64,000 nucleotides of DNA from an uncultured Lachnospiraceae bacterium (lineage in GTDB: Bacteria > Bacillota > Clostridia > Lachnospirales > Lachnospiraceae). The stretch is from assembly GCA_947626715.1 (NCBI GenBank), contig CANQTG010000003.1, forward strand, positions 2,707-66,706, written 5' to 3'. Shown one piece after another: positions 1,509 to 13,749 of the stretch. A program made the position numbers and the translations under genes. How positions within the stretch are numbered: position 1 is the first letter of the stretch; every line of letters begins with the position of its first letter. Below the pieces are notes generated by a model, which did no database searches, was not told the origin of the DNA, and saw only the letters and a program-made list of their open reading frames with translations.

Positions 1509-1724
1509 TTACATATGTTCGATCCTTGCCATCATGTAATCGAGGCAGGAGAGCTTCCGCCTCTCTTCGGCAAGCAGGTCCTTTTTGATCCTGAAAAAAC
1601 GGCGCAGCAGCCGCTCCCTGCCGCTTTCGTCCCTGTTATCGCAGCAGGACTGATAAAGCGCGAGTATCTCGTCCGACATGCCGATCTCTTTTAATTTCCG
1701 AATGGTTCCCCGATCCGTTTCCAT
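1509..1724 (-). CDS. Small helical protein resembling the MerR C-terminal half without HTH (copy A)
   Basis: 71 aa, LKEIGMS..I...Y...D....R..LL......L......L..LDYM pattern; RBS GGAGG; divergent from LysR; paralogous to 2895-3119 and 7535-7762. Confidence 0.65.
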   Translation of the reverse strand: METDRGTIRKLKEIGMSDEILALYQSCCDNRDESGRERLLRRFFRIKKDLLAEERRKLSCLDYMMARIEHM

Positions 1725-1880
1725 ATCGTTTTTCCTCCCCTGCGGCCCCTGCCGGATCCCAAAGCTTATCCCAGCAGCCGAAAATCATGCACAGGCGCGG
1801 AAAGCATTTGATCCCGCCTGACAAGGTACGATAAAATCTCAGCGTGCGCGGCGCAGCTATAGTCTAGGATACGCCGCCGC

Positions 1881-1909
1881 TTGACAGATAACAAATACTT
1901 ATGTAGAAT
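1881..1909 (+). promoter_or_regulatory. Sigma70-type promoter of LysR1 with LysR-type T-N11-A boxes
   Basis: TTGACA (1881-1886), 17 bp, TAGAAT (1904-1909) with TG extension. ATAA-N7-TTAT (1888-1902) lies between the hexamers and ATGTA-N9-TACAT (1901-1919) overlaps the -10. Confidence 0.7.
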
Positions 1910-1960
1910 GCGGTTACATAGTTTTTAAGAATGATTTATTGAAAAGGAGCGTGAGCCGAT

Positions 1961-2845
1961 ATGATCGAAACGCGGCTGTTACAATATTTCCTTGCGATCG
2001 CGGAAGAACAGAGTATCACCAGAGCCGCGGAATATCTCCATGTCACGCAGCCGACCCTTTCCAAGCAGATGATGGACTTGGAGCATACGCTGGGCAAGCA
2101 GCTTTTTATCCGCGGCAAGAAAAAGGTGACCCTGACGGAGGACGGCGCGTATCTCCGCTCCCGCGCGCAGGAAATCATGTCGCTGATGGAAAAGACCGAA
2201 TCGGCGTTCCGGGAGAACGAACAGACGATCTCGGGCGACATCCATATCGGCTGCGGAGAATACCGCAGCTCCTACCGGATCATGCAGTTAGTCCGGGAGA
2301 TCCAGTTAGAATATCCCGAGATCCGATTCCATTTTTTCAGCTCCAACGCCGACGCGATCCTCGAACGGCTCGACAAGGGGCTTCTTGATATGGGGTTTCT
2401 ATTGGAGCCTGAGAGGAAGCCGCATTATGAATATCAAAAGCTCCCGTTTTACGAAACATGGGGGATCCTCGCAAGAAAAGACTCGCCGCTTAGCGGGCGC
2501 GAAACGGTATCCTTCAAAGAGCTTGCCGGGCTTCCCCTTATCATGCCCAGCCAATCCTCCAACAGCAGCCGGATCGCCGCGCTTTTTGCCGATGAACTGC
2601 TCTCCCCGCATATCGTATCGACCTACAACCTGATCTTCAACGCGGGCCTGATGGTGGAGGCCGGGATCGGTTACGCCCTCTGTATCGACGAGCTGATCGA
2701 CACGGCGGGAAACCACCCGCTGACCTTCATTCCCCTTGCGCCTAAGCTTTGCTCCCATGTGATCCTCTTTACCAAAAAATATCAGGTCTTCTCAAAGGCG
2801 GCAAGACTGTTTCTCGACTGTCTGAAAGAAAGAATCGCCGTCTGA
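1961..2845 (+). CDS. LysR family transcriptional regulator
   Basis: N-terminal HTH ([30 protein letters not shown]); 294 aa with a substrate-binding domain. Confidence 0.95.
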   Translation: MIETRLLQYFLAIAEEQSITRAAEYLHVTQPTLSKQMMDLEHTLGKQLFIRGKKKVTLTEDGAYLRSRAQEIMSLMEKTESAFRENEQTISGDIHIGCGEYRSSYRIMQLVREIQLEYPEIRFHFFSSNADAILERLDKGLLDMGFLLEPERKPHYEYQKLPFYETWGILARKDSPLSGRETVSFKELAGLPLIMPSQSSNSSRIAALFADELLSPHIVSTYNLIFNAGLMVEAGIGYALCIDELIDTAGNHPLTFIPLAPKLCSHVILFTKKYQVFSKAARLFLDCLKERIAV

Positions 2846-2894
2846 GCGCGCTCATAGGGCTGGCCGTCCTTTTGCCGGAAAATACCGGCGCGGC

Positions 2895-3119
2895 CTATAC
2901 GCGCCCGTCCGCGATCAGGCTCTCCAGAAAATAAAGATCCGCCTGCGCGTTATGGATATTCTGCAGCAGTCTCTTTCTTTTCTTTGCCAGCAGTCCCATG
3001 CTTTCCGCTAGGTCTCCGCTCTGCCACGCCGCGATAAAGATATCGATCTCAGCCTTTGTGCAGCCGGCATCCTCCATATTCTGTTTTACCTCTTCTATGC
3101 TCCGATATCTTCCAAACAT
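2895..3119 (-). CDS. Small MerR-C-terminal-like protein (copy B)
   Basis: MEDAGCTKAEI...LLAKKRKRLLQNIHNAQADLYFLESLI; directly downstream of patB. Alternative start at 3077. Confidence 0.65.
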   Translation of the reverse strand: MFGRYRSIEEVKQNMEDAGCTKAEIDIFIAAWQSGDLAESMGLLAKKRKRLLQNIHNAQADLYFLESLIADGRV

Positions 3120-3135
3120 GACCGAAAGCCTCTTT

Positions 3136-4317
3136 TTAACGACGGTTTTCGACGGCTCCCTCGTACTTTTCGATTCCTTCCCGCAGGCGGGAGAGCCCGT
3201 CTCTTAGCACGCTGCGGGGACAGGCGGCGTTCATACGGATAAAGCGCTCCCCGCCGCGGCCATACTGCGACCCGCTCGAAACGATCAGTCCCGTCTCTTT
3301 GCGGATAAACGAAACGGCCTCGTCGGCAGAGCCGGCCAGACGTCCGCAGTCTAACCACATAAGATACGTGGCCTGCGAGGGAACGGCGCGCAGCTTAGGG
3401 ATATTTTTTTGGATATACTCCGCCGCTTCCTTTTTATTTTGGAATAAATAGGCGCGCAGCTCGTCAAGCCACCGCGCCCCTTTGGTAAACGCGACGACGG
3501 CCGCTTCGACGGCAAAGGCATTCGGCTCCGCCACCTCGTCCGTATTCAGCGCGCGCCAGACCTTATGGCGCAGCGCCGGATTCGGGACTGCGACCGCCGC
3601 CGTCTGCAGCCCCGCCAGATTAAACGCCTTCGTCGGCGCAATGCAGGTAACGCTGTTTTCCCGGCAGTCCTCGGAAACGCTCGCAAACGGGATATATTCC
3701 GTTTCCGGCGCGGTCAGATCGCAGTGGATCTCATCTGACAGGACGACGACATGATATTTCCGGCAGAGAGCGCCGATTCGGGCAAGCGTTTCCCGACTCC
3801 AGATCTTTCCAATGGGATTATGCGGATTGCACAGGATCATCAGAGAAGTCTGCGGGTCGGCGAGCTTTTTTTCCAGATCCTCAAAATCGATCTCATATCC
3901 GCCGTCTTTGTACGTTAATTCACTTTCCAAGACCTGCCTTCCATTATTGAGAACGGAATGAAAAAAGATATTGTAAACGGGAGTCTGCAATAAGACCTTT
4001 TCGGCGGGCGTCGTCAGCTTTCGGACAATACTGGAAACGGCGGGCACCACGCCCGTGCAGAAGATCAGCCAGTCCCGCTCGAGCGCAAAGTGATGTCTGC
4101 TCTGCCACCATGCCGCGTAAGCGTCGTACCACGACTTTGGGACCACGCAATAACCGAATACGCCGTGTTCCGCCCTCTCTTTTATCGCATGGAGTATCTC
4201 CGGCGCCGTCGGGAAATCCATATCCGCCACCCACATAGGCAGTTCGCCGTCCGCGATATCCCACTTTAAGGAATTTGTATTCCTGCGGTCCGTAACCGTA
4301 TTAAAATCATATTCCAT
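3136..4317 (-). CDS. patB: MalY/PatB family PLP-dependent C-S lyase (cystathionine beta-lyase-like)
   Basis: LPMWVADMDF, LCNPHNPIG, SDEIHCDL, APTKAFNLAGL (PLP lysine); 393 aa. Confidence 0.9.
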   Translation of the reverse strand: MEYDFNTVTDRRNTNSLKWDIADGELPMWVADMDFPTAPEILHAIKERAEHGVFGYCVVPKSWYDAYAAWWQSRHHFALERDWLIFCTGVVPAVSSIVRKLTTPAEKVLLQTPVYNIFFHSVLNNGRQVLESELTYKDGGYEIDFEDLEKKLADPQTSLMILCNPHNPIGKIWSRETLARIGALCRKYHVVVLSDEIHCDLTAPETEYIPFASVSEDCRENSVTCIAPTKAFNLAGLQTAAVAVPNPALRHKVWRALNTDEVAEPNAFAVEAAVVAFTKGARWLDELRAYLFQNKKEAAEYIQKNIPKLRAVPSQATYLMWLDCGRLAGSADEAVSFIRKETGLIVSSGSQYGRGGERFIRMNAACPRSVLRDGLSRLREGIEKYEGAVENRR

Positions 4318-4336
4318 ATTCCCTGTCCCCGTTTCT

Positions 4337-5215
4337 TTATACGCACATTCGGATCGGCTGCTGTATCTCCTGCCTGCATACGATCCTCGTTTTCGACGGA
4401 TCCACCTTGTCTTTTTCGATCGTAAGCTCTTTGATCAGATCCGCAGTGATCGTGCCGCCCGACGGATTCAGTATGCTGTCAACCGCTCCACTGATATCCG
4501 CTTCCACGGTGGAATATTCAAACGCCAGCGTCGTATTCAAAAGCTTACAGTTTTTCAGGATAAGGTTGTCGATGTAGCACATGCCCTGAAGACTCTCTAT
4601 CGTACAGTTGACAAGCGTCAGGTTTTTCGCGTTCCAGCCCAGATATTCCCCCGAAATAAACGAATCGTAAACGGTCACGTTCTCGCTGTTCCAAAAAGCG
4701 TCTTTGGAAAGCAGGCGCGAATCGTGTATTTCCACATTTCTCGCCCCGTCAAAGGAATAATTCCCATACAGCGTAAGGCCAGAGACCTTCATATTGCTGC
4801 TGTTCATGGCAAAATAATCCCCTTTTGCCGTCACCTGCTCCAACGTCACCTGATCGCAGTTCCACAGCGTTTCCGCCGCATTCGGGAAAGAAACGTTTTT
4901 TAGAAAGACCTCCTCGCAGCGGCGGAAGTTTTTCGGAGCTTCGATCGCGCTGTCCTCCACCCGGATACGTTTCGTGTACCAGACGCCGGCGCGTCCCATC
5001 TCAAACCACGTACAGTCCTTGACCGCTATATTCCTGCAATACCACAGCGGATATTTCCATTTGAACATACTGCCCGACAGCTCAATATCGTGGCTTTCCT
5101 TTAACGGCGATTCCCCGTCGTCAAAGATCGTATCTTTTATGCGCAGATAGGCGCTGCCGAATAACGCGCGCTCCCCCGTTAAAAACTCCTGACAGATCTC
5201 GTTTTTTATCTTCAT
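4337..5215 (-). CDS. DUF3737 family protein (beta-helix-like repeats)
   Basis: GERALF...GESPLKES...FKWKYPLWY...SKDAFW...GEYLGW...LAFEYS. Start placed at ATG 5215 (RBS GGAGGG). Confidence 0.82.
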   Translation of the reverse strand: MKIKNEICQEFLTGERALFGSAYLRIKDTIFDDGESPLKESHDIELSGSMFKWKYPLWYCRNIAVKDCTWFEMGRAGVWYTKRIRVEDSAIEAPKNFRRCEEVFLKNVSFPNAAETLWNCDQVTLEQVTAKGDYFAMNSSNMKVSGLTLYGNYSFDGARNVEIHDSRLLSKDAFWNSENVTVYDSFISGEYLGWNAKNLTLVNCTIESLQGMCYIDNLILKNCKLLNTTLAFEYSTVEADISGAVDSILNPSGGTITADLIKELTIEKDKVDPSKTRIVCRQEIQQPIRMCV

Positions 5216-5298
5216 GCTTTTCCCTCCGTTTATGGACAATGCTTTTCTTTGATTTTTGATTTCTCATTTTATATTTTTATTTTCTTTTCTATATTATA

Positions 5299-5335
5299 AT
5301 TATAGTATTCCTTTTATAAAATAACAAATATCTAT
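5299..5335 (-). promoter_or_regulatory. Promoter of DUF3737-patB with an overlapping LysR-like box
   Basis: Minus strand TTGTTA (5327-5322), 17 bp, TATAAT (5304-5299). ATAACAAATATCTAT (5321-5335) is nearly identical to the box in the LysR1 promoter. Confidence 0.55.
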
Positions 5336-5390
5336 GCTGCATGATTTATCATAATCTATAGGAATGGAAATATCATAAAAAACGGATAAA

Positions 5391-5422
5391 GCAGCAGCCC
5401 TGATCCTTCGCCGGACTGCTGC
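5391..5422 (-). terminator. Intrinsic terminator after the AKR lipoprotein gene
   Basis: GCAGCAGTCC...GGCTGCTGC stem followed by TTTATCCGTTTTTT on the minus strand. Confidence 0.65.
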
Positions 5423-5493
5423 CCTTCCATGTAATATAATAAGCGCCAAGCCTCGCAAGCGAATCTTGAACAGATGGGAGATGACTCCCACTT

Positions 5494-6498
5494 CTAATAC
5501 CAGTCATGCTTTTCGTTCCTATCAAGATCGGCGATCTGCCGCATTTCCTCGTCCGTCAAGGCAAAGTCAAAGAGATCGAGATTCTCCCGGATATGCGCAG
5601 GGTCGCTCGAGCCCGGAATAACGACGATCCCCCTCTGCAGATCCCAGCGTAGGATCACCTGCGCGGCAGATACGCCATGCGCCCCGGCGATCGCCGCGAT
5701 CGTCTTATCGCCCAGCAGCTCCGCCGTATGCCCTCTGCCGCCCAGCGGGTACCAGCACTGAACCACAATACCCTTTTGCTGGATATATGGGACTACCTCC
5801 CGCTCCTGATAGTACGGGTGGATCTCGTTCTGCACGAGCGCCGGCATGATATTGACCTGCGGCAGAAATTCCTCCAGTTCCTTCACATACCAGTTTGACA
5901 GCCCCAGCGAACGGATCTTCCCTTCCGCCGCCGCTTTTTCCATCGCATGATAAGCGTTTACGTCGCCGCTCCCGGGGTGATGGAGCAGCATCATATCAAT
6001 ATAGCCGATATCCAATTTATCCAACGCGTCCTGAATCGCTTTCTCTGGATCTTCATACTGCTTTCCGGGATATATCTTCGTAATCACGAAAATATCCTCC
6101 CGCGGGATGCCGGAATCCCGGATCGCCCGCCCTACGGCGGCTTCATTCCCATACATATACGCCGTGTCGATCAGCCGTCCGCCCGCCTCCAGCAGCGCGG
6201 TCACAGAATCATAGCATTCCGTATCGGAAAGACTGTAGGTTCCAAGTCCCATGATCGGCATTTCATATCCGCTGTTGAGCATGACCGTATGGTTTGCAAA
6301 ATCGAATACGCCGCTTTCCCCGGATACGGAGGCGTCCTCTGAAAGAGCCTTTATATCGCCGCCGGACGAAGAATAATCGGCAGGAAGATGGGGCGTCTCC
6401 TTCCCTTTGACCTGATCGCAGGCCGAGAGGCCGGGCGTAAGAAGCGAGGTCAAAAGAAGCGCCGCCAGCCGTTTCAACTGTTTCTTCCGTTTTTGCAT
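5494..6498 (-). CDS. Aldo/keto reductase (2,5-DKG reductase-like) with N-terminal lipoprotein signal
   Basis: GLGTY, LIDTAYMYGNE, VITKIYP, LLHHP, LGLSNW, QNEIHPY give the D/Y/K/H tetrad. N-terminus is basic + hydrophobic + LSA-C. Confidence 0.9.
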   Translation of the reverse strand: MQKRKKQLKRLAALLLTSLLTPGLSACDQVKGKETPHLPADYSSSGGDIKALSEDASVSGESGVFDFANHTVMLNSGYEMPIMGLGTYSLSDTECYDSVTALLEAGGRLIDTAYMYGNEAAVGRAIRDSGIPREDIFVITKIYPGKQYEDPEKAIQDALDKLDIGYIDMMLLHHPGSGDVNAYHAMEKAAAEGKIRSLGLSNWYVKELEEFLPQVNIMPALVQNEIHPYYQEREVVPYIQQKGIVVQCWYPLGGRGHTAELLGDKTIAAIAGAHGVSAAQVILRWDLQRGIVVIPGSSDPAHIRENLDLFDFALTDEEMRQIADLDRNEKHDWY

Positions 6499-6517
6499 AT
6501 CCCGCTCCCTCCGCGTC

Positions 6518-7516
6518 CTATTTCAGATATTCCGTAAAGAAATCTTCCAGCTTATCAAAGGGGATCGCGTCCTTACCGCCGCCGTCATACAGATCCGTGT
6601 GCACCGCGCCCGGAATGATCAGCAGCTCCTTATTCTCCGTATATTGACTGTCCTTTGTCATCGCCGCATAGGCGTCTTTGGAGAAATAGCAGGAATGCGC
6701 CTTTTCCCCGTGCACGAGCAGGACGGCGCTGCGGATCTCGTCCGCATAGCTTAGGATCGGCTGATTTAAAAAGGATTCGCAGCCGATCACATTCCAGCCT
6801 CCGTTGGAATTGAGCGACCTTTCATGATACCCGCGGCCCGTTTTGTAATAATCATAATAATCCTTTACAAAAAACGGCGCGTCCTCGGGAAGCGGATCGA
6901 CGACCCCGCCGCCCAGCTTATACTCGCCCGCTCTTAGATCCGCAAGCCTCTGCTCACACATCGCCTTCCGCTTCTGATAGCGCGCCTCTTCGCTGTCCTC
7001 GCTGTCAAAATAACCGTTGACGTTCACTCTCGCCATATCGTACATGGTGGAAGCGACCGTCGCTTTGATCCTCGTATCCAGCGCCGCCGCATTTAACGCC
7101 ATGCCGCCCCAGCCGCAGATCCCGATGATCCCGATCCTGTCGGGATCGACTCTCTCATCCAAAGAGAGCGCATCTACCGCCGCCATAAAATCCTCCGTAT
7201 TGATATCGGGAGAAGCCATGTATCTGACATTGCCTCCGCTCTCGCCCGTAAACGAGGGATCGAAGGCGATCGTCAGAAAGCCCCGCTCCGCCATCGTCTG
7301 CGCATAGAGCCCCGCGCACTGCTCCTTTACCGCTCCAAAAGGGCCGCAGACAGCGATCGCCGGAAGCCTGCCCTGCGCATTCTTAGGCACATAGCGGTCC
7401 GCCGCCAGCGTAATCCCGTAGCGGTTTCCAAAGCTTATCTTGTCGTGATCGACCTTATCGCTCTTGGGGAAGGTCTTATCCCACTCTTTTGTAAGTTTCA
7501 ATTCTTCTTTTTTCAT
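6518..7516 (-). CDS. Alpha/beta hydrolase (YcjY-like, Cys nucleophile elbow)
   Basis: GPFGAVKEQ, FDPSFTGESGG, GICGWGG, VHGEKAHS, GAVHTDLYD. Confidence 0.85.
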   Translation of the reverse strand: MKKEELKLTKEWDKTFPKSDKVDHDKISFGNRYGITLAADRYVPKNAQGRLPAIAVCGPFGAVKEQCAGLYAQTMAERGFLTIAFDPSFTGESGGNVRYMASPDINTEDFMAAVDALSLDERVDPDRIGIIGICGWGGMALNAAALDTRIKATVASTMYDMARVNVNGYFDSEDSEEARYQKRKAMCEQRLADLRAGEYKLGGGVVDPLPEDAPFFVKDYYDYYKTGRGYHERSLNSNGGWNVIGCESFLNQPILSYADEIRSAVLLVHGEKAHSCYFSKDAYAAMTKDSQYTENKELLIIPGAVHTDLYDGGGKDAIPFDKLEDFFTEYLK

Positions 7517-7534
7517 TTTCTTTCCACCCTTTCC

Positions 7535-7762
7535 TTATTTTGCTGCGATCTTTTCCGTCTGCCTGATCAGATAATCCATACGGTCTACCCTTCTCTGGCT
7601 TTCATGCATTTTGTCCACAAGGTTCGCGCGGCACTTCCTGAGATATCGTATCAGGCTGTCTAAGCTGTCCGTTTCAAGGAGCCTTTCGGCCCCTTCGACC
7701 TCTTCTTTCGTACAGCCCGCGTCAGCCAGACCCACGAGCAGGCGGTCTAATTGTTCCTTCAT
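7535..7762 (-). CDS. Small MerR-C-terminal-like protein (copy C)
   Basis: LADAGCTKEEV...YLRKCRANLVDKMHESQRRVDRMDYLI; RBS AAGGA; divergent from LysR2 and first gene of the hydrolase/AKR unit. Confidence 0.7.
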   Translation of the reverse strand: MKEQLDRLLVGLADAGCTKEEVEGAERLLETDSLDSLIRYLRKCRANLVDKMHESQRRVDRMDYLIRQTEKIAAK

Positions 7763-7849: not shown

Positions 7850-7865
7850 GAATATCATGATATTC
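7850..7865. promoter_or_regulatory. Perfect 16-bp palindrome in the divergent LysR2 promoter region
   Basis: GAATATCATGATATTC equals its own reverse complement. Confidence 0.45.
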
Positions 7866-7899
7866 CTTTTATGCATATTATAAGGGAGGAAGAGATTCG

Positions 7900-8799
7900 A
7901 TGGAGATCCGCACGTTACGCTACTTTCTCGCAACAGCAAGAGAAGAAAATATGACAAGGGCGGCCGAGCTTCTTCACGTTACGCAGCCCACGCTCTCCAA
8001 AGCGCTGCGCGCGCTGGAAGAGGAACTCGGAAAAAAGCTGTTTACCAGACACAGCTTCCATATCTCCCTGACCGAGGAGGGTATGCTCCTCCGCGACCGG
8101 GCGGAGGATCTGGTCGGCATGGCGGATAAGATCGAAAAGGAATTTTTATCTCTGGACGACATCACCGGCGGGGATCTGTTTCTGGGGCTTGCCGAATCCT
8201 GCCAGATCCGATACCTCGCAAGGGAGATCCGAAAGCTGAAAACCGTTTATCCCGGACTGAAATATCACATTACGAGCGGCGATACGGAGCAGGTCACGGA
8301 AAAGCTGGACCGCGGCCTTTTGGATTTTGCGGTTCTGTGCGATACTCCCGACGCCCGCAAATACGACTATCTCCCATTCCCCAAGCCCGATATCTGGGGC
8401 GTCATCATGAAAGAGGACGATCCTCTCGCAAAAAAAGAGGCCATCGTGACAGATGACCTCATAGGGCTCCCTTTATTTACTTCCGAACAGGGCTGGAAAA
8501 ACGATATCGGAAAATGGTGCGGCGAACGCCTCCACGAGCTTTCGTTAGAAGGCTCCTTCCGGCTCGCATACAACGCCTCCCTCTTCGTAAGGGAGGGGCT
8601 CGGTTATCAGCTCACCTTTGCGGGGCTGATCGACACCTCCAAAGGAAGCGGCCTTGTTTTTCGCCCGCTCTCCCCGAAGTTGGAAACCCGTCTTTTTTTA
8701 ATCTGGAATAAATATCAGACCTTCACGCCGATCGCGGAAAGATTCCTTGCGCAGATCCAAACAGGATTTTCCCGCTCCCCGCAAAGCCCTACAGCTTGA
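7900..8799 (+). CDS. LysR family transcriptional regulator (paralogue of 1961-2845)
   Basis: [32 protein letters not shown]; shares [10 protein letters not shown] and FNKYQ-type segments with LysR1. Confidence 0.95.
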
Positions 8800-10612
8800 A
8801 TTTATTCGTTTCCTGACTCTGCCTCTGGCTCAGATCCACCAACGCCTGCGTATCTTCGGTGCATTCATGAATCGTCTGCGAAAGGATCGCCATCGTCGCG
8901 CTCGTCTCCTGCGTGGAAGCCGCGTTTTCCTGTACGACGCTGGAGAGATTATTCACGGAATCCGTTACGATACGCTTGAGCGCGTCTAAGGTATTGGTCT
9001 GCTCGCCGATCTCCTGCGCCGCGTCCTCGACAGAGTGGATCTCCTCGTACAGATGGCCGAACGCCTGCCGCGTCTCTTCCAGACATTTCTGCTGTTCCTG
9101 AACGTTCCGCGTCACTTCCTGCATTTTATCGACAGAGCTTGCCACGTTCCCTGTCAGCTCGCGGACAATGCTCTCGATCTCCTGCGCGCTGCTGGAGGAT
9201 TCTTCGGAAAGATTCCGGATCTCTTCCGCCACGACCGCGAAGCCTCTGCCCGCTTCTCCGGCCCGCGCCGCTTCAATGCTCGCGTTTAGCGACAGCAGAT
9301 TGGTCTGCGCCGCCAGCCCCTTGATGATCTCCACCGCCTTGTTGATATCCGCCGCGGATTCGTTATTTTTATTGGTCTGTTCCGATACCACGCCGATCGC
9401 GTCGATCGTCGCCTGCGTGATCTTATTCAGCTTATTGATACTCGACGAAGCGCCCGCGGAATATTCCGTCATGCTCGAAACGGATTCCCGCAGCCGGTTC
9501 ACATCGTTTTTCTCCGTCTCGATCACGTCCCCCAGCTCCACGATCTTGCTGCTGACCGTCTCCGTTTCGCCCGCCTGATTGGTAGCGCCCTGCGCCAGCT
9601 CCTCGATCGCCCGGTTCGCGCTCTGGATCCGGTCCGTGATATCCTCAAATTTCTGATTAAAGTTCTCGCTGCTGCTGTTTAGCTCCCCTTCGATGTTCAC
9701 GACGTTCCCGATCATCGAGGTCAGAGAGCTCTTCACGCGCCCCAGATAACGAGCCATCTCGCCGATCTCATCCTTGCGGCGCAGCAGCTTCTCATCCGTA
9801 TGAAACGCGAGATTGCCGCCGGCCAGCTTTTCCAACGCCTTCTCCACGCTGCCGATATCCCGCACGGTATGGCGGCCAAACAGCGCCGCGACCGTCAAAG
9901 AGACCGCCAGCACGATCACAGAGACCACGATAAAGATCACGATCATCCTGCTTGCCTGCCCGCGGATCGCATCCTCCGCATCCTGCGCCTGCGCCTGCAT
10001 ATCGTCTATGTAATTGCCCGTGGTAACGACCCAGTTCCAAGGGGCGAATTTCTCGGAATACGCCAGCTTGGGCGCTACCGTCGTGCCGTCCGCTTTGGTA
10101 AAGTAAAATTCGTTGTAGCCGCCGCCCGCTTCCGCGGATTTCATGATATTCTGAATGATCTTGACCCCGTTCTGATCCGTCAGGTCATAACGATTATCCC
10201 CCTCCTGCTCCGGCAGGATCGGGTGCATGACCAATGTATAATCCGTATCGTCGATCCACATATATCCCGAACCGTCGTCCCGGTAACGCATTGCCCGCAC
10301 GCCCTCCGCCGCCAGCGCCTTCGCCTCTTCCTCGCTCAAAGCGCCGCTCTGGGAAAGATCGTAATAATACTGCAGAAACGCGATCGCGCTCTGCACCTCG
10401 GACTTGATCTCCGTCCGATATCCCTGCATCATCGCCTCGTTATACTCCGTTGTGGAGGTGTTCATGGAGCGGTTTAAATAATACACGCCCAGCCCTCCTA
10501 CGCACAGCGCAGTAAACGCGATCATCAGAAAAACCATAAGGATCAGCGTCGCCGCAAAACTCTTTGTCTTTTTCACTGCCTGTACCGTATCCTGATCTGC
10601 CATTTGACTCAC
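8789..10612 (-). CDS. Methyl-accepting chemotaxis protein with extracellular Cache domain
   Basis: Two TM segments; Cache-like [13 protein letters not shown]...MHP...W..TTGNY; HAMP; signalling hairpin [31 protein letters not shown]. Confidence 0.93.
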
Positions 10613-10784: not shown

Positions 10785-11780
10785 TCATATCCTGTCGCTG
10801 TAAGGCAGGGATCGTATGTATGTTTCCATCCATGCAAAATCCGGCGCGCCATTCATATCGTTTGGCAGCTTTATCAGGGTTTCTTTCATTTTTTCCAGCG
10901 TCCATTTCCTGCCATATCCGAAACGATACTTATTTGCTTTTATAACTGTGACAAGAAACATCGCGATATACGGATTCATCTTCCAAAAATCTCTGGCATA
11001 TAAAACATTTACGTCGTCGGACGCCCAGAATGGCTCGGATTGATAAAACGCCTCGCCTACGCTGCCATTATAATTAACGGTGATACAGTTTGGCTCCCAA
11101 TAATCCTCCGTTTCTATTTTCTCCCTTACTCCGTTATTTTCACTTATCGCTCCCAAAAAATTAATATCGCCCCTGACCATATCCGCTTTTGTCAGCCGCT
11201 TTCCTTTGACGATCACAAACAGATCGTCCAGCTTAAATTCCTTCCACCCGCTAAAGTCGATCTTTTCTTTTTTTACAGGCAGCTTTGTTCTGACAGGTTG
11301 ATATCGGAGCGAATACATATACTGTCTCATAAACGCCCAGTCTGGATTTCCATCCTGATCTGCCGGCAGCTTTACCATCGTCTGGGAAAGATGTTTCCGG
11401 TATTTTCTTCCAAAAGAATACTTAGGCCGCTCTCTGTCAAGAACCGTCACAAGGAACAGGCCCGTTGCCGGATCCAGATGCTCGTTATACCCGACGGACA
11501 ATGTCGTAGAGCCGATAAAATCCTCTCCGATATAATTGGTATATCCGACCGATCCCTGTCCGTCGCAGATAAAGATAATGCAATTTCCCTTTGTCACAAG
11601 CTGTTCATCGTACATTACCCTCTTCATGACTCCGTTATTCGTTTTCTTCGCGCCAATATAGAGAATATCCGACCCGTCTGTCAATTCCGAAGCATTGCTG
11701 CATTTACAGTTTTCCAGCCTGAAAATACCATCTGGACCGCCTAGCGAAAACCACTTCCACGCCGCGACATCAAGCCTCAT
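10785..11780 (-). CDS. Restriction-modification specificity subunit, BcgIB-like (two TRDs)
   Basis: Internal duplication: W..F.L...F...KLP.D..G.PD(W/F).(F/W)M..Y..SL occurs twice; overlaps the end of the methylase gene. Confidence 0.8.
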   Translation of the reverse strand: MRLDVAAWKWFSLGGPDGIFRLENCKCSNASELTDGSDILYIGAKKTNNGVMKRVMYDEQLVTKGNCIIFICDGQGSVGYTNYIGEDFIGSTTLSVGYNEHLDPATGLFLVTVLDRERPKYSFGRKYRKHLSQTMVKLPADQDGNPDWAFMRQYMYSLRYQPVRTKLPVKKEKIDFSGWKEFKLDDLFVIVKGKRLTKADMVRGDINFLGAISENNGVREKIETEDYWEPNCITVNYNGSVGEAFYQSEPFWASDDVNVLYARDFWKMNPYIAMFLVTVIKANKYRFGYGRKWTLEKMKETLIKLPNDMNGAPDFAWMETYIRSLPYSDRI

Positions 11781-13635
11781 ACACTTTTCCCTCCCTGATC
11801 AGATATGCTAGGTAATCGTTTAATGTCGCCTGAAAATCATCTTGCGTAAGTTTTGTGTAATCCGTCTGCATATATGCCTCGCATAACCATTCGTCTTCGT
11901 AACCAACGCAGTGTCTCGCCGATAATCCGTCAACAACATCCCGGTTCCGGTATAATCTCAGCCATTCTTTTTCAACGCTTTCCCATTTCCCTAAAGCGTC
12001 TATCCTTCCCAGCTTTTTCTTCTTAACAAAGCCGTCCTCCTTGCAATATCCAAAGAATGTCTCCTGCGCGCTGTCATGGGGCGTATGAGCCTCCCAGACC
12101 ATGACGCATACATTCGTTCCGGCCGGGTAAAAGATATCGTCAGGCATGGAAAAAACAGCCTTTAAGGTATGCTTCTTCATCAGACGTTCTCTGATCTCCT
12201 TATATTTGGTGCCAGTCGCACAGCTCATCGGAACTACCACTACGCCAATGCCGCCTGCCGTTAAAATATCCAGCAGATGTTCTACAAATTCCAGTTCCAC
12301 AACATCTTTCTGCGAATAGGGCGGATTGATCAATCCAATATTGATATTTTTCTCCTTCAGCTCCCGAGTGATCTCTTTATTAAAACAGTCGCCCTTATAG
12401 ATGTTTGACTTCCCATCTTTTCTGATAATCATATTGGCAACCGCCAATGTATAAAGCCCGTCGTCAAACTCAACGCCATACAAGCCATATCTGCGGATCT
12501 TTTCAATCTCATCCGGATTTGCGTCTTGAAACATCTTGCTCATGGCGGTCACTAAAAAAGAGCCGGAACCGCAGCATATATCCACGATCCTGCTGTTCTT
12601 ATTTACATTCGCCAGATCGCACATAAATTCCGTTAAATGCTGCGGAGTCAATACGATACCCAGACCGCTTCCGTCTCCGCCTGAATATTTTATAAATTCA
12701 TGATAAAAGACCCCCAGCGCGTCGACCGTACTGTCCGCATAGTCCATCATCGGTTTGATCTTCATTTCCAGCTGCTCAATATACCAAGTAATCGACTTTG
12801 AGTGTCCTAGCGGAATCTCTGCAAATTTGGTATTATCCTGAAGCGTATTGAATACCTGCTTGATATAGCTTACACGGCTGCTCTTAATATCGCTTTCCTC
12901 CAAAACATTTTCGATAGCATTTTGGATATTCTGCATAACTGATTTATAGGACGTTAAGGAAGAATAGCTTTTTGAAAAATCCTCATCGTTCAGCGCGATC
13001 AGAATCCCCGCGATAAATATTGGCTTATGCGCCTCCGTAACCTTTATCTCCCTGAGAGAATTGTGCATATCGATCGCCGTATTTCTGATCTCATCTAAGG
13101 AATATGCCTTTTTCAGCCTATTTCCCTTAATCAGCTCAAGATAATTCTGCGGTTCCAGAATGATATCTCTCGCTTTTTCCAATACCGTATACGTATCCTG
13201 TCCTTTTATCCAGTAGAAAGTATCCACTTTCCTGTTTTCCGCGCTTGTTCCGCTGACGGCCAATGCGATAACGTTGTATTCCTGCTTTAAGAATTTTGCA
13301 TAATACAATACGCCGTCCACCGCATACGCGCTCGGCTTATTATATTTTTCGCTGCAATGCCTTTTCACCGTATTTTTACACTCTACAACAAGGATCGTAT
13401 TTATGTCATCATAAAAGGTAATCACATATTCCGGCCTTGCCTTTCCCCTTTTGCACTGGGAAAAATCCTCCAGCGCACACTCTCTGGGCTTCCCTCCGGC
13501 CTGCTTCAAAAGCCGGTCTATTTTATCAATGTCCGCGACATCACCCTGCGGAAAAACATAACCAAACTTATTTTTTCCGATAACGCACTTCATCTCTTTT
13601 AAAGTCAGACTTTCCGTATACCGCTCAACAGCCAT
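11770..13635 (-). CDS. Fused endonuclease/N6-adenine methyltransferase, BcgIA-like (Type IIB/IIG)
   Basis: N-terminal PE...VECK nuclease motif, motif I DICCGSGSFL, motif IV NPPY, VLTPQHL. Start at ATG 13635 (RBS GGAGGAG). Confidence 0.88.
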   Translation of the reverse strand: MAVERYTESLTLKEMKCVIGKNKFGYVFPQGDVADIDKIDRLLKQAGGKPRECALEDFSQCKRGKARPEYVITFYDDINTILVVECKNTVKRHCSEKYNKPSAYAVDGVLYYAKFLKQEYNVIALAVSGTSAENRKVDTFYWIKGQDTYTVLEKARDIILEPQNYLELIKGNRLKKAYSLDEIRNTAIDMHNSLREIKVTEAHKPIFIAGILIALNDEDFSKSYSSLTSYKSVMQNIQNAIENVLEESDIKSSRVSYIKQVFNTLQDNTKFAEIPLGHSKSITWYIEQLEMKIKPMMDYADSTVDALGVFYHEFIKYSGGDGSGLGIVLTPQHLTEFMCDLANVNKNSRIVDICCGSGSFLVTAMSKMFQDANPDEIEKIRRYGLYGVEFDDGLYTLAVANMIIRKDGKSNIYKGDCFNKEITRELKEKNINIGLINPPYSQKDVVELEFVEHLLDILTAGGIGVVVVPMSCATGTKYKEIRERLMKKHTLKAVFSMPDDIFYPAGTNVCVMVWEAHTPHDSAQETFFGYCKEDGFVKKKKLGRIDALGKWESVEKEWLRLYRNRDVVDGLSARHCVGYEDEWLCEAYMQTDYTKLTQDDFQATLNDYLAYLIREGKVYEA

Positions 13636-13749
13636 GATGTCATCTCCTCCGTAATATCCTGATAATATCATAAAGTTTTGAATATATCCAGCATTTCACG
13701 GGTTCCTCTGAACCTTTCAAAACCAAATCAGAACATTTGTTCTATTCTT

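Follow-up and report, generated by a model that had tools for sequence, protein, structure and literature searches.

What three small genes of no annotated family do beside two LysR-type regulators is the question raised by one end of a 64,000-nucleotide (nt) stretch of an uncultured Lachnospiraceae genome (assembly GCA_947626715.1, contig CANQTG010000003.1, positions 2,707 to 66,706; the whole stretch is hereafter 'the window'). The genes encode the mini-proteins A, B and C (Table 1). A first-pass annotation, made from the letters alone, had proposed that these are dimerisation segments of MerR-type regulators without the DNA-binding head, which could either poison or tune a MerR partner or sense electrophiles together with LysR. 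Our analysis places them in a family that descends from MerR regulators by loss of that head, and it shows that the constant genomic partner of the family is a LysR gene. We tentatively propose that the mini-proteins act with this neighbour rather than with a MerR protein.

An undescribed family of small helical proteins

The three open reading frames (ORFs) that the first-pass annotation had picked out on the minus strand are present, mutually related and all contain cysteine. The 28 close homologues of C are unnamed proteins of 70–105 residues. A profile of C homologues and B, searched against 1.84 billion cluster representatives, matched 1,456 proteins at E ≤ 1e-3, of which 280 reached E ≤ 1e-10; the representatives are clustered at 50% identity, and the weak end of the 1,456 may include MerR proteins that keep their head as well as chance coiled coils. 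Every one of the best 150 matches is short. Database names of family members are limited to 'hypothetical protein'. Scans of A, B and C with Pfam and NCBIfam gave nothing meaningful, a Pfam scan of 103 members showed no consistent family, not even PF09278 (MerR-DNA-bind), and no description of the family was found in literature on DUF3737, on MerR proteins without a helix-turn-helix (HTH) domain or on small partners of MerR and LysR. In the libraries and papers searched, this family of approximately 75-residue three-helix proteins is undescribed.

Members share a signature spread over about 70–80 residues, L.DAGC ... R(C).L...H.sQ..vD.LDYLI. Residue frequencies were taken from 120 members and are given in the numbering of C. 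The N-terminal part comprises L12 (0.78), D14 (0.84), G16 (0.93) and C17 (0.86); the first half of a long helix carries L41 (0.89), R45 (0.99), C46 (0.59), L48 (0.83) and H53 (0.99), and its second half Q56 (0.93), D60 (0.95), D63 (1.00), Y64 (0.68), L65 (0.90) and I66 (0.77). Cys61 is present in 37% of members. C carries all signature residues but C46 and matches the family signature in full. B is a partial match, with DAGC, R and H..Q kept and D60, D63 and Y64 (the D..DY motif) lost; its only cysteine is Cys17. A is a weak match that keeps only (L/M)K.xG, LL and CLDYM, lacks H53, Q56 and D60, and has no cysteine at position 17.

An AlphaFold2 model of C, with a predicted local distance difference test score (pLDDT) of 94.7, has helices at residues 2–14, 19–30 (short) and 34–74 (long). 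The model of A (pLDDT 85) is also helical, with a kink in the long helix, and on account of this kink Foldseek with it gave no informative match. Hydrophobic residues of the long helix appear to follow a heptad pattern at 41/48/52/59/62/66, and the heptad series 41/45/48/52/55/59/62/66 is compatible with a coiled coil. Beside these heptad positions, H53, Q56, D60 and D63 would form a polar stripe, and R45 and D63 appear to lie at equal distances from the helix centre, where two antiparallel chains of a dimer would be expected to join them by a salt bridge.

The divergence of A and B raises the question of whether all three are genes of this family. B and C share 30% identity over 53 residues (BLASTP, E 3e-6), the match of A to C is weak (E 0.007) and A and B gave no BLASTP match; word-based homologue searches with A and with B each retrieved only the query itself. 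A family hidden Markov model (HMM) was built from 161 other members, with A, B and C left out, and searched against the 35,843 six-frame ORFs of the source genome. It ranked C first (E 1.3e-30, 104.7 bits), B second (E 2.8e-16, 58 bits) and A fourth (E 0.0063, 16 bits), each in an ungapped, full-length alignment. As sole query, A matches canonical members elsewhere with per-genome E-values of 9e-6 to 8e-3. Both A and B have full-length, gap-free orthologues in a genome of another genus of the same family (G147): that of A (48% identity) is divergent from a LysR1-like gene, and that of B (38% identity) closes a DUF3737 unit beside the same LysR1-like gene. The island plan itself recurs there, with three mini-protein genes in 8 kb (locus L151, G147:C2:1-18000) and the gene order A-type<, LysR1>, B-type<, DUF3737<, and further on PatB<, DUF3737<, C-type<, LysR2>. 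Within the C subfamily, the median ratio of non-synonymous to synonymous substitution rates (dN/dS, by NG86) is 0.28, with a ratio of 0.25 for the closest pair (dN 0.17, dS 0.70); this subfamily evolves under purifying selection. Taken together, the HMM matches, the positional orthologues in G147 and the dN/dS of the C subfamily indicate that A, B and C are genuine genes of one family, of which C is typical, B divergent and A very divergent.

A few matches in the census were set aside. Matches of 97–137 residues among the top representatives were considered as domain fusions and rejected as mis-called starts or fragments, a 271-residue open frame in genome G012 proved to be a mini-protein remnant read into the next gene, and a match in G046 is unrelated to the family. 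Decayed copies also occur: a gene that kept its head is split into two ORFs at L137 (G024:C81), an in-frame TAA interrupts the copy at L138 (G050:C13), and at L169 (G012:C2:132150-132275) the C-terminal half of a mini-protein reads through into a flavin-reductase-like ORF.

Descent from NmlR/AdhR-like MerR regulators

An alignment of 120 family members compared by hhalign with 24 NmlR/AdhR-like MerR proteins matched over 68 columns with 95.6% probability (E 1.2e-8), pairing mini-protein residues 4–71 with MerR residues 52–121; controls with a reversed alignment and 20 column shuffles of the MerR alignment scored at most 18.2, at a probability of at most 5%. The mini-proteins begin near the equivalent of MerR residue 52. 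Searched against the PDB, the family profile matched the MerR-family structure 3gp4 (profile 11–68 to chain residues 54–113, E 0.073), and in the source genome the family HMM picked out the 143-residue NmlR/AdhR-like MerR protein as fifth of all ORFs (its residues 55–117, E 0.019). The profile also matches MerR frames of 127–182 residues in other genomes, with E-values of 1e-5 to 6e-4. Foldseek with the model of C returned the MerR structures 3gpv and 5crl with the top query-normalised TM-scores, 0.59–0.64, at root-mean-square deviations of 2.6–2.8 Å; the E-value of 3.4 falls short of significance, a common outcome for small helical queries.

A search of the PDB with the single sequence of C brought up nothing beyond chance coiled-coil matches. 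A, B and C had no match to MerR_1, MerR or HTH families at E ≤ 10, MerR families were absent from the 25 most-matched families across 103 members scanned at E ≤ 1, and the mini-proteins had no match to the NmlR/AdhR model NF041849 (equivalog cut-off 175 bits). RecX three-helix repeats were considered as a source of homology and rejected: the hhalign probability was 15.7% (score 22, 42 columns), and the HMM match was split into weak stretches.

The family also includes relatives that still carry the head. These proteins of 112–121 residues have an N-terminal MerR_1 HTH (PF13411, 53.4 and 44.6 bits; cut-off 21.6), and their C-terminal two-thirds show the exact mini-protein signature R..L.eIH.sQ..vD.LDYLI, scoring 49–69 bits against the mini-protein HMM. 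Their best NCBIfam match is NmlR (NF041849), at 52.7 and 20.2 bits, below the 175-bit equivalog cut-off. Like the mini-proteins they have R, H, Q, D, D and Y, but L or F at the position of C17; the DAGC cysteine is conserved only in headless members. In loci with headed relatives (L132, L133, L135, L136 and L150), a LysR gene lies directly upstream on the same strand, and at L156 the order is iron-containing alcohol dehydrogenase (Fe-ADH), flavodoxin_4, LysR, headed MerR-like protein and CMD/AhpD-like protein. Headed and headless forms occur together in genome G142 and elsewhere mostly in separate genomes. The source genome has three MerR proteins, one of them NmlR/AdhR-like, and the family HMM found no headed member of the signature subfamily among its 35,843 ORFs. 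That single NmlR/AdhR-like short MerR protein is encoded at C102:1625-2053, with a glyoxalase-like ORF nearby on the opposite strand.

These profile matches to MerR proteins, the hhalign alignment, the Foldseek TM-scores and, decisively, the headed relatives identify the mini-proteins as headless NmlR/AdhR-like MerR proteins. Sequence and profile comparison thus shows that the family descends from such a regulator by loss of the N-terminal HTH and wing, and that its members retain MerR helices alpha3 and alpha4 and the long dimerisation helix alpha5. The idea of an HTH-less MerR dimerisation segment, put forward in the first-pass annotation, is therefore borne out by the hhalign match, the recovery of MerR proteins by the family HMM and the headed relatives. 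Absence of the HTH rules out DNA binding of the MerR type, and operator binding with DNA distortion as performed by MerR proteins is not expected.

Functional and sensor cysteines of NmlR proteins lie in alpha3, alpha4 and alpha5, the alpha3 sensor being Cys54 of HiNmlR and Cys52 of AdhR (PMC5001606). They fall in the segment that the mini-proteins retain. The mini-protein Cys17, conserved in 86% of members, lies six residues after position 11, the equivalent of the NmlR sensor.

LysR as the constant genomic partner

The surroundings of the family were read from two samples. The first consists of 75 C-type loci chosen by the pattern [RK]VDRMDYL, in which the C subfamily is over-represented and of which the 70 in named genomes were counted. 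At the first three C homologues looked up, a divergent LysR gene is followed by the mini-protein, an alpha/beta hydrolase and then aldo/keto reductase (AKR), cyclophilin-like 2 (CycL2) or flavodoxin-like genes, and the flanks outside this block are unrelated. A divergent LysR gene lies within 500 nt of the mini-protein gene in 56 of the 70 loci, and the hydrolase is directly downstream in 57, with a 4-nt gene overlap at L001. No MerR gene was found within 5 kb at any of the 70. The loci belong to Lachnospiraceae, Butyrivibrio, Oscillospiraceae/Ruminococcaceae, Erysipelotrichaceae and Eubacterium, with rabbit and ruminant gut as the main source.

The same layout, with other cargo, is seen around members that share only about 30% identity with C. 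At L115, for example, the order LysR<, mini-protein>, CycL2>, DUF3737>, aminotransferase>, AKR-Fer4> unites in one operon gene types that the window splits over the units of A and B. CycL2 is frequent cargo in operons led by a mini-protein, and DUF3737 is tied to mini-proteins in other genomes as well. The downstream genes vary (hydrolase, CycL2, AKR), and LysR is constant.

The second sample, an even one of 151 genomes of the order, carries the broad rule together with the loci of distant members. The family is present in 26 of these genomes (~17%) in one to four copies each. When coordinates were cross-tabulated with those of LysR2 homologues, 23 of 25 mini-protein or headed matches lay within 700 bp of a LysR2-like gene. 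Read the other way, a mini-protein stands beside approximately 21 of 47 LysR2-like genes, rising to about 9 of 11 among the closest assessable LysR2 homologues. The dependence is therefore asymmetric: the mini-protein needs a LysR neighbour, and LysR does not need the mini-protein. A, B and C each adjoin a LysR gene. The constant genomic partner of the family is thus LysR and not MerR, and the linkage to LysR and redox genes in other genomes that the first-pass annotation had predicted is strongly confirmed by the C-type loci, the 151-genome sample and the distant members.

A conserved putative operator between LysR2 and C

The intergenic region between LysR2 and C holds a composite operator-like element (Table 1). 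Across loci its consensus is ATATTC-N7-GAATAT-CAYG-ATATTC; the window has ATATGC-N7-GAATAT-CATG-ATATTC, with one base changed in the first half-site. It occurs once per locus, 75–100 bp upstream of the mini-protein start, in about 50 of the 75 C-type loci and in many genera, and the exact 16-bp palindrome is found only twice in the 2.65-Mb source genome. Given its position and its form, in which the palindrome lies in a T-N11-A setting of the LysR type, this element is the presumed binding site of LysR2.

A proposed role beside LysR, and its alternatives

We tentatively prefer a role in which the mini-protein is a non-DNA-binding, probably dimeric, MerR-derived modulator or co-sensor that acts with the adjacent LysR. 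A modulator directed at LysR is proposed because LysR is the one constant genomic partner of the family. The mini-protein would form an antiparallel coiled-coil dimer resembling that of MerR alpha5 and, at the conserved operator, would contact the adjacent LysR and thereby serve the divergent operon as feedback modulator or co-sensor; this contact may be made by the invariant polar stripe of the long helix (R45, H53, Q56, D60, D63 and Y64). Placement as the first gene of a LysR-controlled unit would give co-induction with the enzymes and could close the feedback loop. The operons that mini-proteins head or close look suited to detoxification of carbonyls, electrophiles or conjugates, with their alpha/beta hydrolase, AKR, flavodoxin-like reductase, CycL2, DUF3737 and PatB C-S lyase genes, and by analogy with NmlR the cysteine confined to headless members (DAGC, 86%) may confer a thiol or electrophile response.

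In a bolder form of this proposal, which we regard as doubtful, the mini-protein would be the first dedicated small protein partner of LysR-type regulators: a MerR dimerisation module, recruited first with and later without its head, that binds the LysR tetramer, for instance at the linker-helix coiled coil, and makes LysR activity respond to thiol or electrophile modification. If the docking reading were true, the pair would form a MerR/LysR hybrid in which two proteins make up one sensor, and gut and rumen Clostridia would carry it widely.

Several points weigh against a LysR-directed role. Adjacency is also expected from simple co-regulation by LysR with no physical contact, and about half of the related LysR genes have no mini-protein, which means that LysR can work without one. 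Parts of the polar stripe are lost in A and B, so these two may act differently or be decaying. The alpha3 sensor cysteine of NmlR is not conserved, the equivalent position 11 being cysteine in 10% of 120 members. Finally, we know of no description of a comparable small protein partner of a LysR-type regulator.

Among the alternatives, an unlikely one is that the mini-protein is a stand-alone thiol or electrophile sensor or buffer, a dimer that reacts through Cys17 (and Cys44, Cys46 or Cys61) without touching LysR, either sequestering reactive compounds as TipAS and AlbAS sequester ligands or passing a signal to another protein. The conservation of Cys17 (86%), Cys46 (59%) and Cys61 (37%), the absence of Cys17 from headed relatives, the sensor cysteines of NmlR in homologous helices and a cargo that resembles carbonyl or quinone detoxification genes would all fit. 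Yet conservation is highest at R, H, Q, D and D rather than at cysteine, A has no Cys17 and B has that cysteine only, a pocketless helical protein of 75 residues would be a poor sink, and the near-obligate adjacency to LysR would be left unexplained. The related suggestion of the first-pass annotation, a cysteine-based sensor paired with LysR, stays viable in view of Cys17, even though the NmlR alpha3 cysteine is not kept. A role in assisting or assembling the downstream enzymes, such as that of a chaperone or subunit of the hydrolase, with no part in regulation, seems improbable. Tight or translational coupling to the hydrolase (the 4-nt overlap at L001 and an 18-nt gap in the window) and the hydrolase as next gene in 57 of 70 C-type loci speak for it, but CycL2, DUF3737 or AKR takes the place of the hydrolase in other subfamilies, B comes last in its unit, behind PatB, and the family descends from a transcription factor, with headed relatives that appear to be co-transcribed with LysR and not with an enzyme.

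We hold it just as improbable that the mini-protein is a dominant-negative subunit, pairing through alpha5 with a full-length MerR/NmlR-type regulator to give half-headed dimers unable to distort the operator. Homology to the MerR dimerisation helix makes such pairing conceivable, headed and headless forms do coexist in G142, and the source genome offers, among its three MerR proteins, the NmlR/AdhR-like one at C102 as the only candidate for heterodimerisation. That host protein, however, lacks the H..Q...D..DY stripe; no MerR gene lies within 5 kb at any of the 70 loci, headed members of the signature subfamily are missing from the source genome, and the two forms mostly inhabit different genomes. 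Heterodimer poisoning of MerR, as put forward in the first-pass annotation, thus finds no support in the genomic context. It is very improbable that the ORFs are remnants of decayed MerR genes or chance frames, as the lost signature parts in A and B and the decayed copies L137, L138 and L169 might suggest: the length is constant at about 75 residues, the genes have their own starts and Shine-Dalgarno sites, the family numbers 1,456 clusters, dN/dS is ~0.28, and A (48%) and B (38%) have full-length, gap-free positional orthologues in another genus.

Relation to known regulators

Among bacterial transcription factors, LysR-type proteins form the largest family, and they are thought to sense small molecules directly; to our knowledge, dedicated protein partners of these regulators are essentially unknown. 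The closest comparison on the MerR side is with the NmlR/AdhR proteins (Haemophilus influenzae NmlR, Bacillus subtilis AdhR; NF041849, with 3gp4 as a MerR example), whose alpha3–alpha5 segment is homologous to the mini-proteins. Both have no separate effector domain, an aldehyde- or electrophile-stress-like setting and cysteines in these helices. Unlike NmlR and AdhR, the mini-proteins have no HTH or wing, do not conserve the alpha3 sensor cysteine, carry another invariant stripe and show linkage to LysR genes instead of a divergent target promoter of their own. The headed relatives (112–121 residues; L132, L133 and L150) share the C-terminal R..LLdEIH.kQ..LD.LDY and a place beside LysR and redox genes (Fe-ADH, flavodoxin and CMD), but they keep the MerR_1 HTH, follow LysR on its own strand instead of heading a divergent operon, and lack the DAGC cysteine.

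For regulatory logic, MerD of the mer operons offers a parallel: it is a MerR homologue within the regulated operon that exerts feedback on the main regulator of the operon. MerD, which still has an HTH, targets MerR and the mer operator, whereas the main regulator here is LysR and the proposed modulator has no HTH. Two other systems illustrate loss of MerR modules. BldC of Streptomyces (PMC5859096) is likewise very small and derived from the MerR fold by module loss, but it is the mirror image of the mini-proteins, having kept the DNA-binding domain and lost the coiled coil. TipAS and AlbAS (for AlbAS, bioRxiv 10.64898/2026.09.21.753095) are also MerR-family-derived, lack a DNA-binding domain and act beside a regulator. 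They differ in being C-terminal ligand-binding domains made from the same gene as the regulator, which work by ligand sequestration; each mini-protein has a gene of its own and comprises the dimerisation part, with no domain for ligand binding. Head-only (BldC) and ligand-domain-only (TipAS and AlbAS) derivatives are known, and we know of no other MerR-derived protein with only the dimerisation part.

The family offers a clean genomic rule, comprising LysR, a conserved operator, a mini-protein and detoxification-like enzymes, for which head-bearing evolutionary intermediates survive. It poses the testable question of whether a fragment of one transcription factor has been re-used to regulate another regulator. 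An answer would annotate thousands of hypothetical small proteins in Clostridia of the herbivore gut and help define an uncharacterised detoxification regulon.

Gene neighbourhood in the window

As the first-pass annotation described, each of the three minus-strand units has one mini-protein gene, two of these genes are divergent from LysR, and Pfam matches agree with the neighbours that it listed (Table 1). Shine-Dalgarno-like purine-rich sites lie 7–10 nt before the starts of A (GGAGG), B (AAGAGG) and C (AAGGA). Consensus scans gave a promoter-like site at 5299-5327 (TTGTTA-17-TATAAT) at the head of the DUF3737-patB unit, another for LysR1 at 1881-1909, and a terminator-like hairpin at 2887-2905 that overlaps the stop codon of B at the end of the DUF3737-patB unit. 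The first of these sites and the hairpin fit with three separate minus-strand units.

Table 1 Features of the LysR/mini-protein island in window coordinates
Feature	Position	Strand	Description
Aldo/keto reductase (AKR)	1-834	minus	PF00248; truncated at window edge; last gene visible in A unit
Cyclophilin-like 2 (CycL2)	899-1369	minus	PF18050; lipoprotein-like N-terminus; downstream of A
Mini-protein A	1509-1724	minus	71-residue ORF; first gene of CycL2/AKR unit; divergent from LysR1
LysR1	1961-2845	plus	PF00126 and PF03466; between A (divergent) and B (convergent)
Mini-protein B	2895-3119	minus	74-residue ORF; last gene of DUF3737-patB unit; convergent with LysR1
PatB/MalY-type class I/II aminotransferase (C-S lyase-like)	3136-4317	minus	PF00155
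DUF3737 (beta-helix) protein	4337-5239	minus	PF12541, 430 bits; heads the unit closed by B
Aldo/keto reductase	5494-6498	minus	PF00248; lipoprotein-like N-terminus
Alpha/beta hydrolase (Peptidase_S15/DLH-like)	6518-7516	minus	Pfam; 18 nt downstream of C
Mini-protein C	7535-7762	minus	75-residue ORF; first gene of hydrolase/AKR unit; divergent from LysR2
Composite operator (presumed)	7850-7878	unstranded	T-N11-A type box and overlapping 16-bp palindrome GAATATCATGATATTC, palindrome at 7850-7865
LysR2	7900-8799	plus	PF00126 and PF03466; divergent from C

Two of the enzymes carry lipoprotein-like signal peptides, the AKR at 5494-6498 (...LLTPGLSAC...) and CycL2 (...AWILIACGK...), both on the minus strand; it would be unusual for an NAD(P)H-type reductase to be exported and lipid-anchored. 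At L004, and likewise at other loci, AKR and CycL2 domains are joined in one protein, of 470 residues at L004.

Beyond the island, a methyl-accepting chemotaxis protein (sCache_2, HAMP and MCPsignal domains) is encoded at 8789-10612 on the minus strand, with an 11-nt convergent overlap with the 3′ end of LysR2. It is followed at 10785-13671, also on the minus strand, by two ORFs of 331 and 633 residues with a G+C content of approximately 44–45%, versus approximately 54%, which by eye resemble the specificity and methylase subunits of type I restriction-modification systems.

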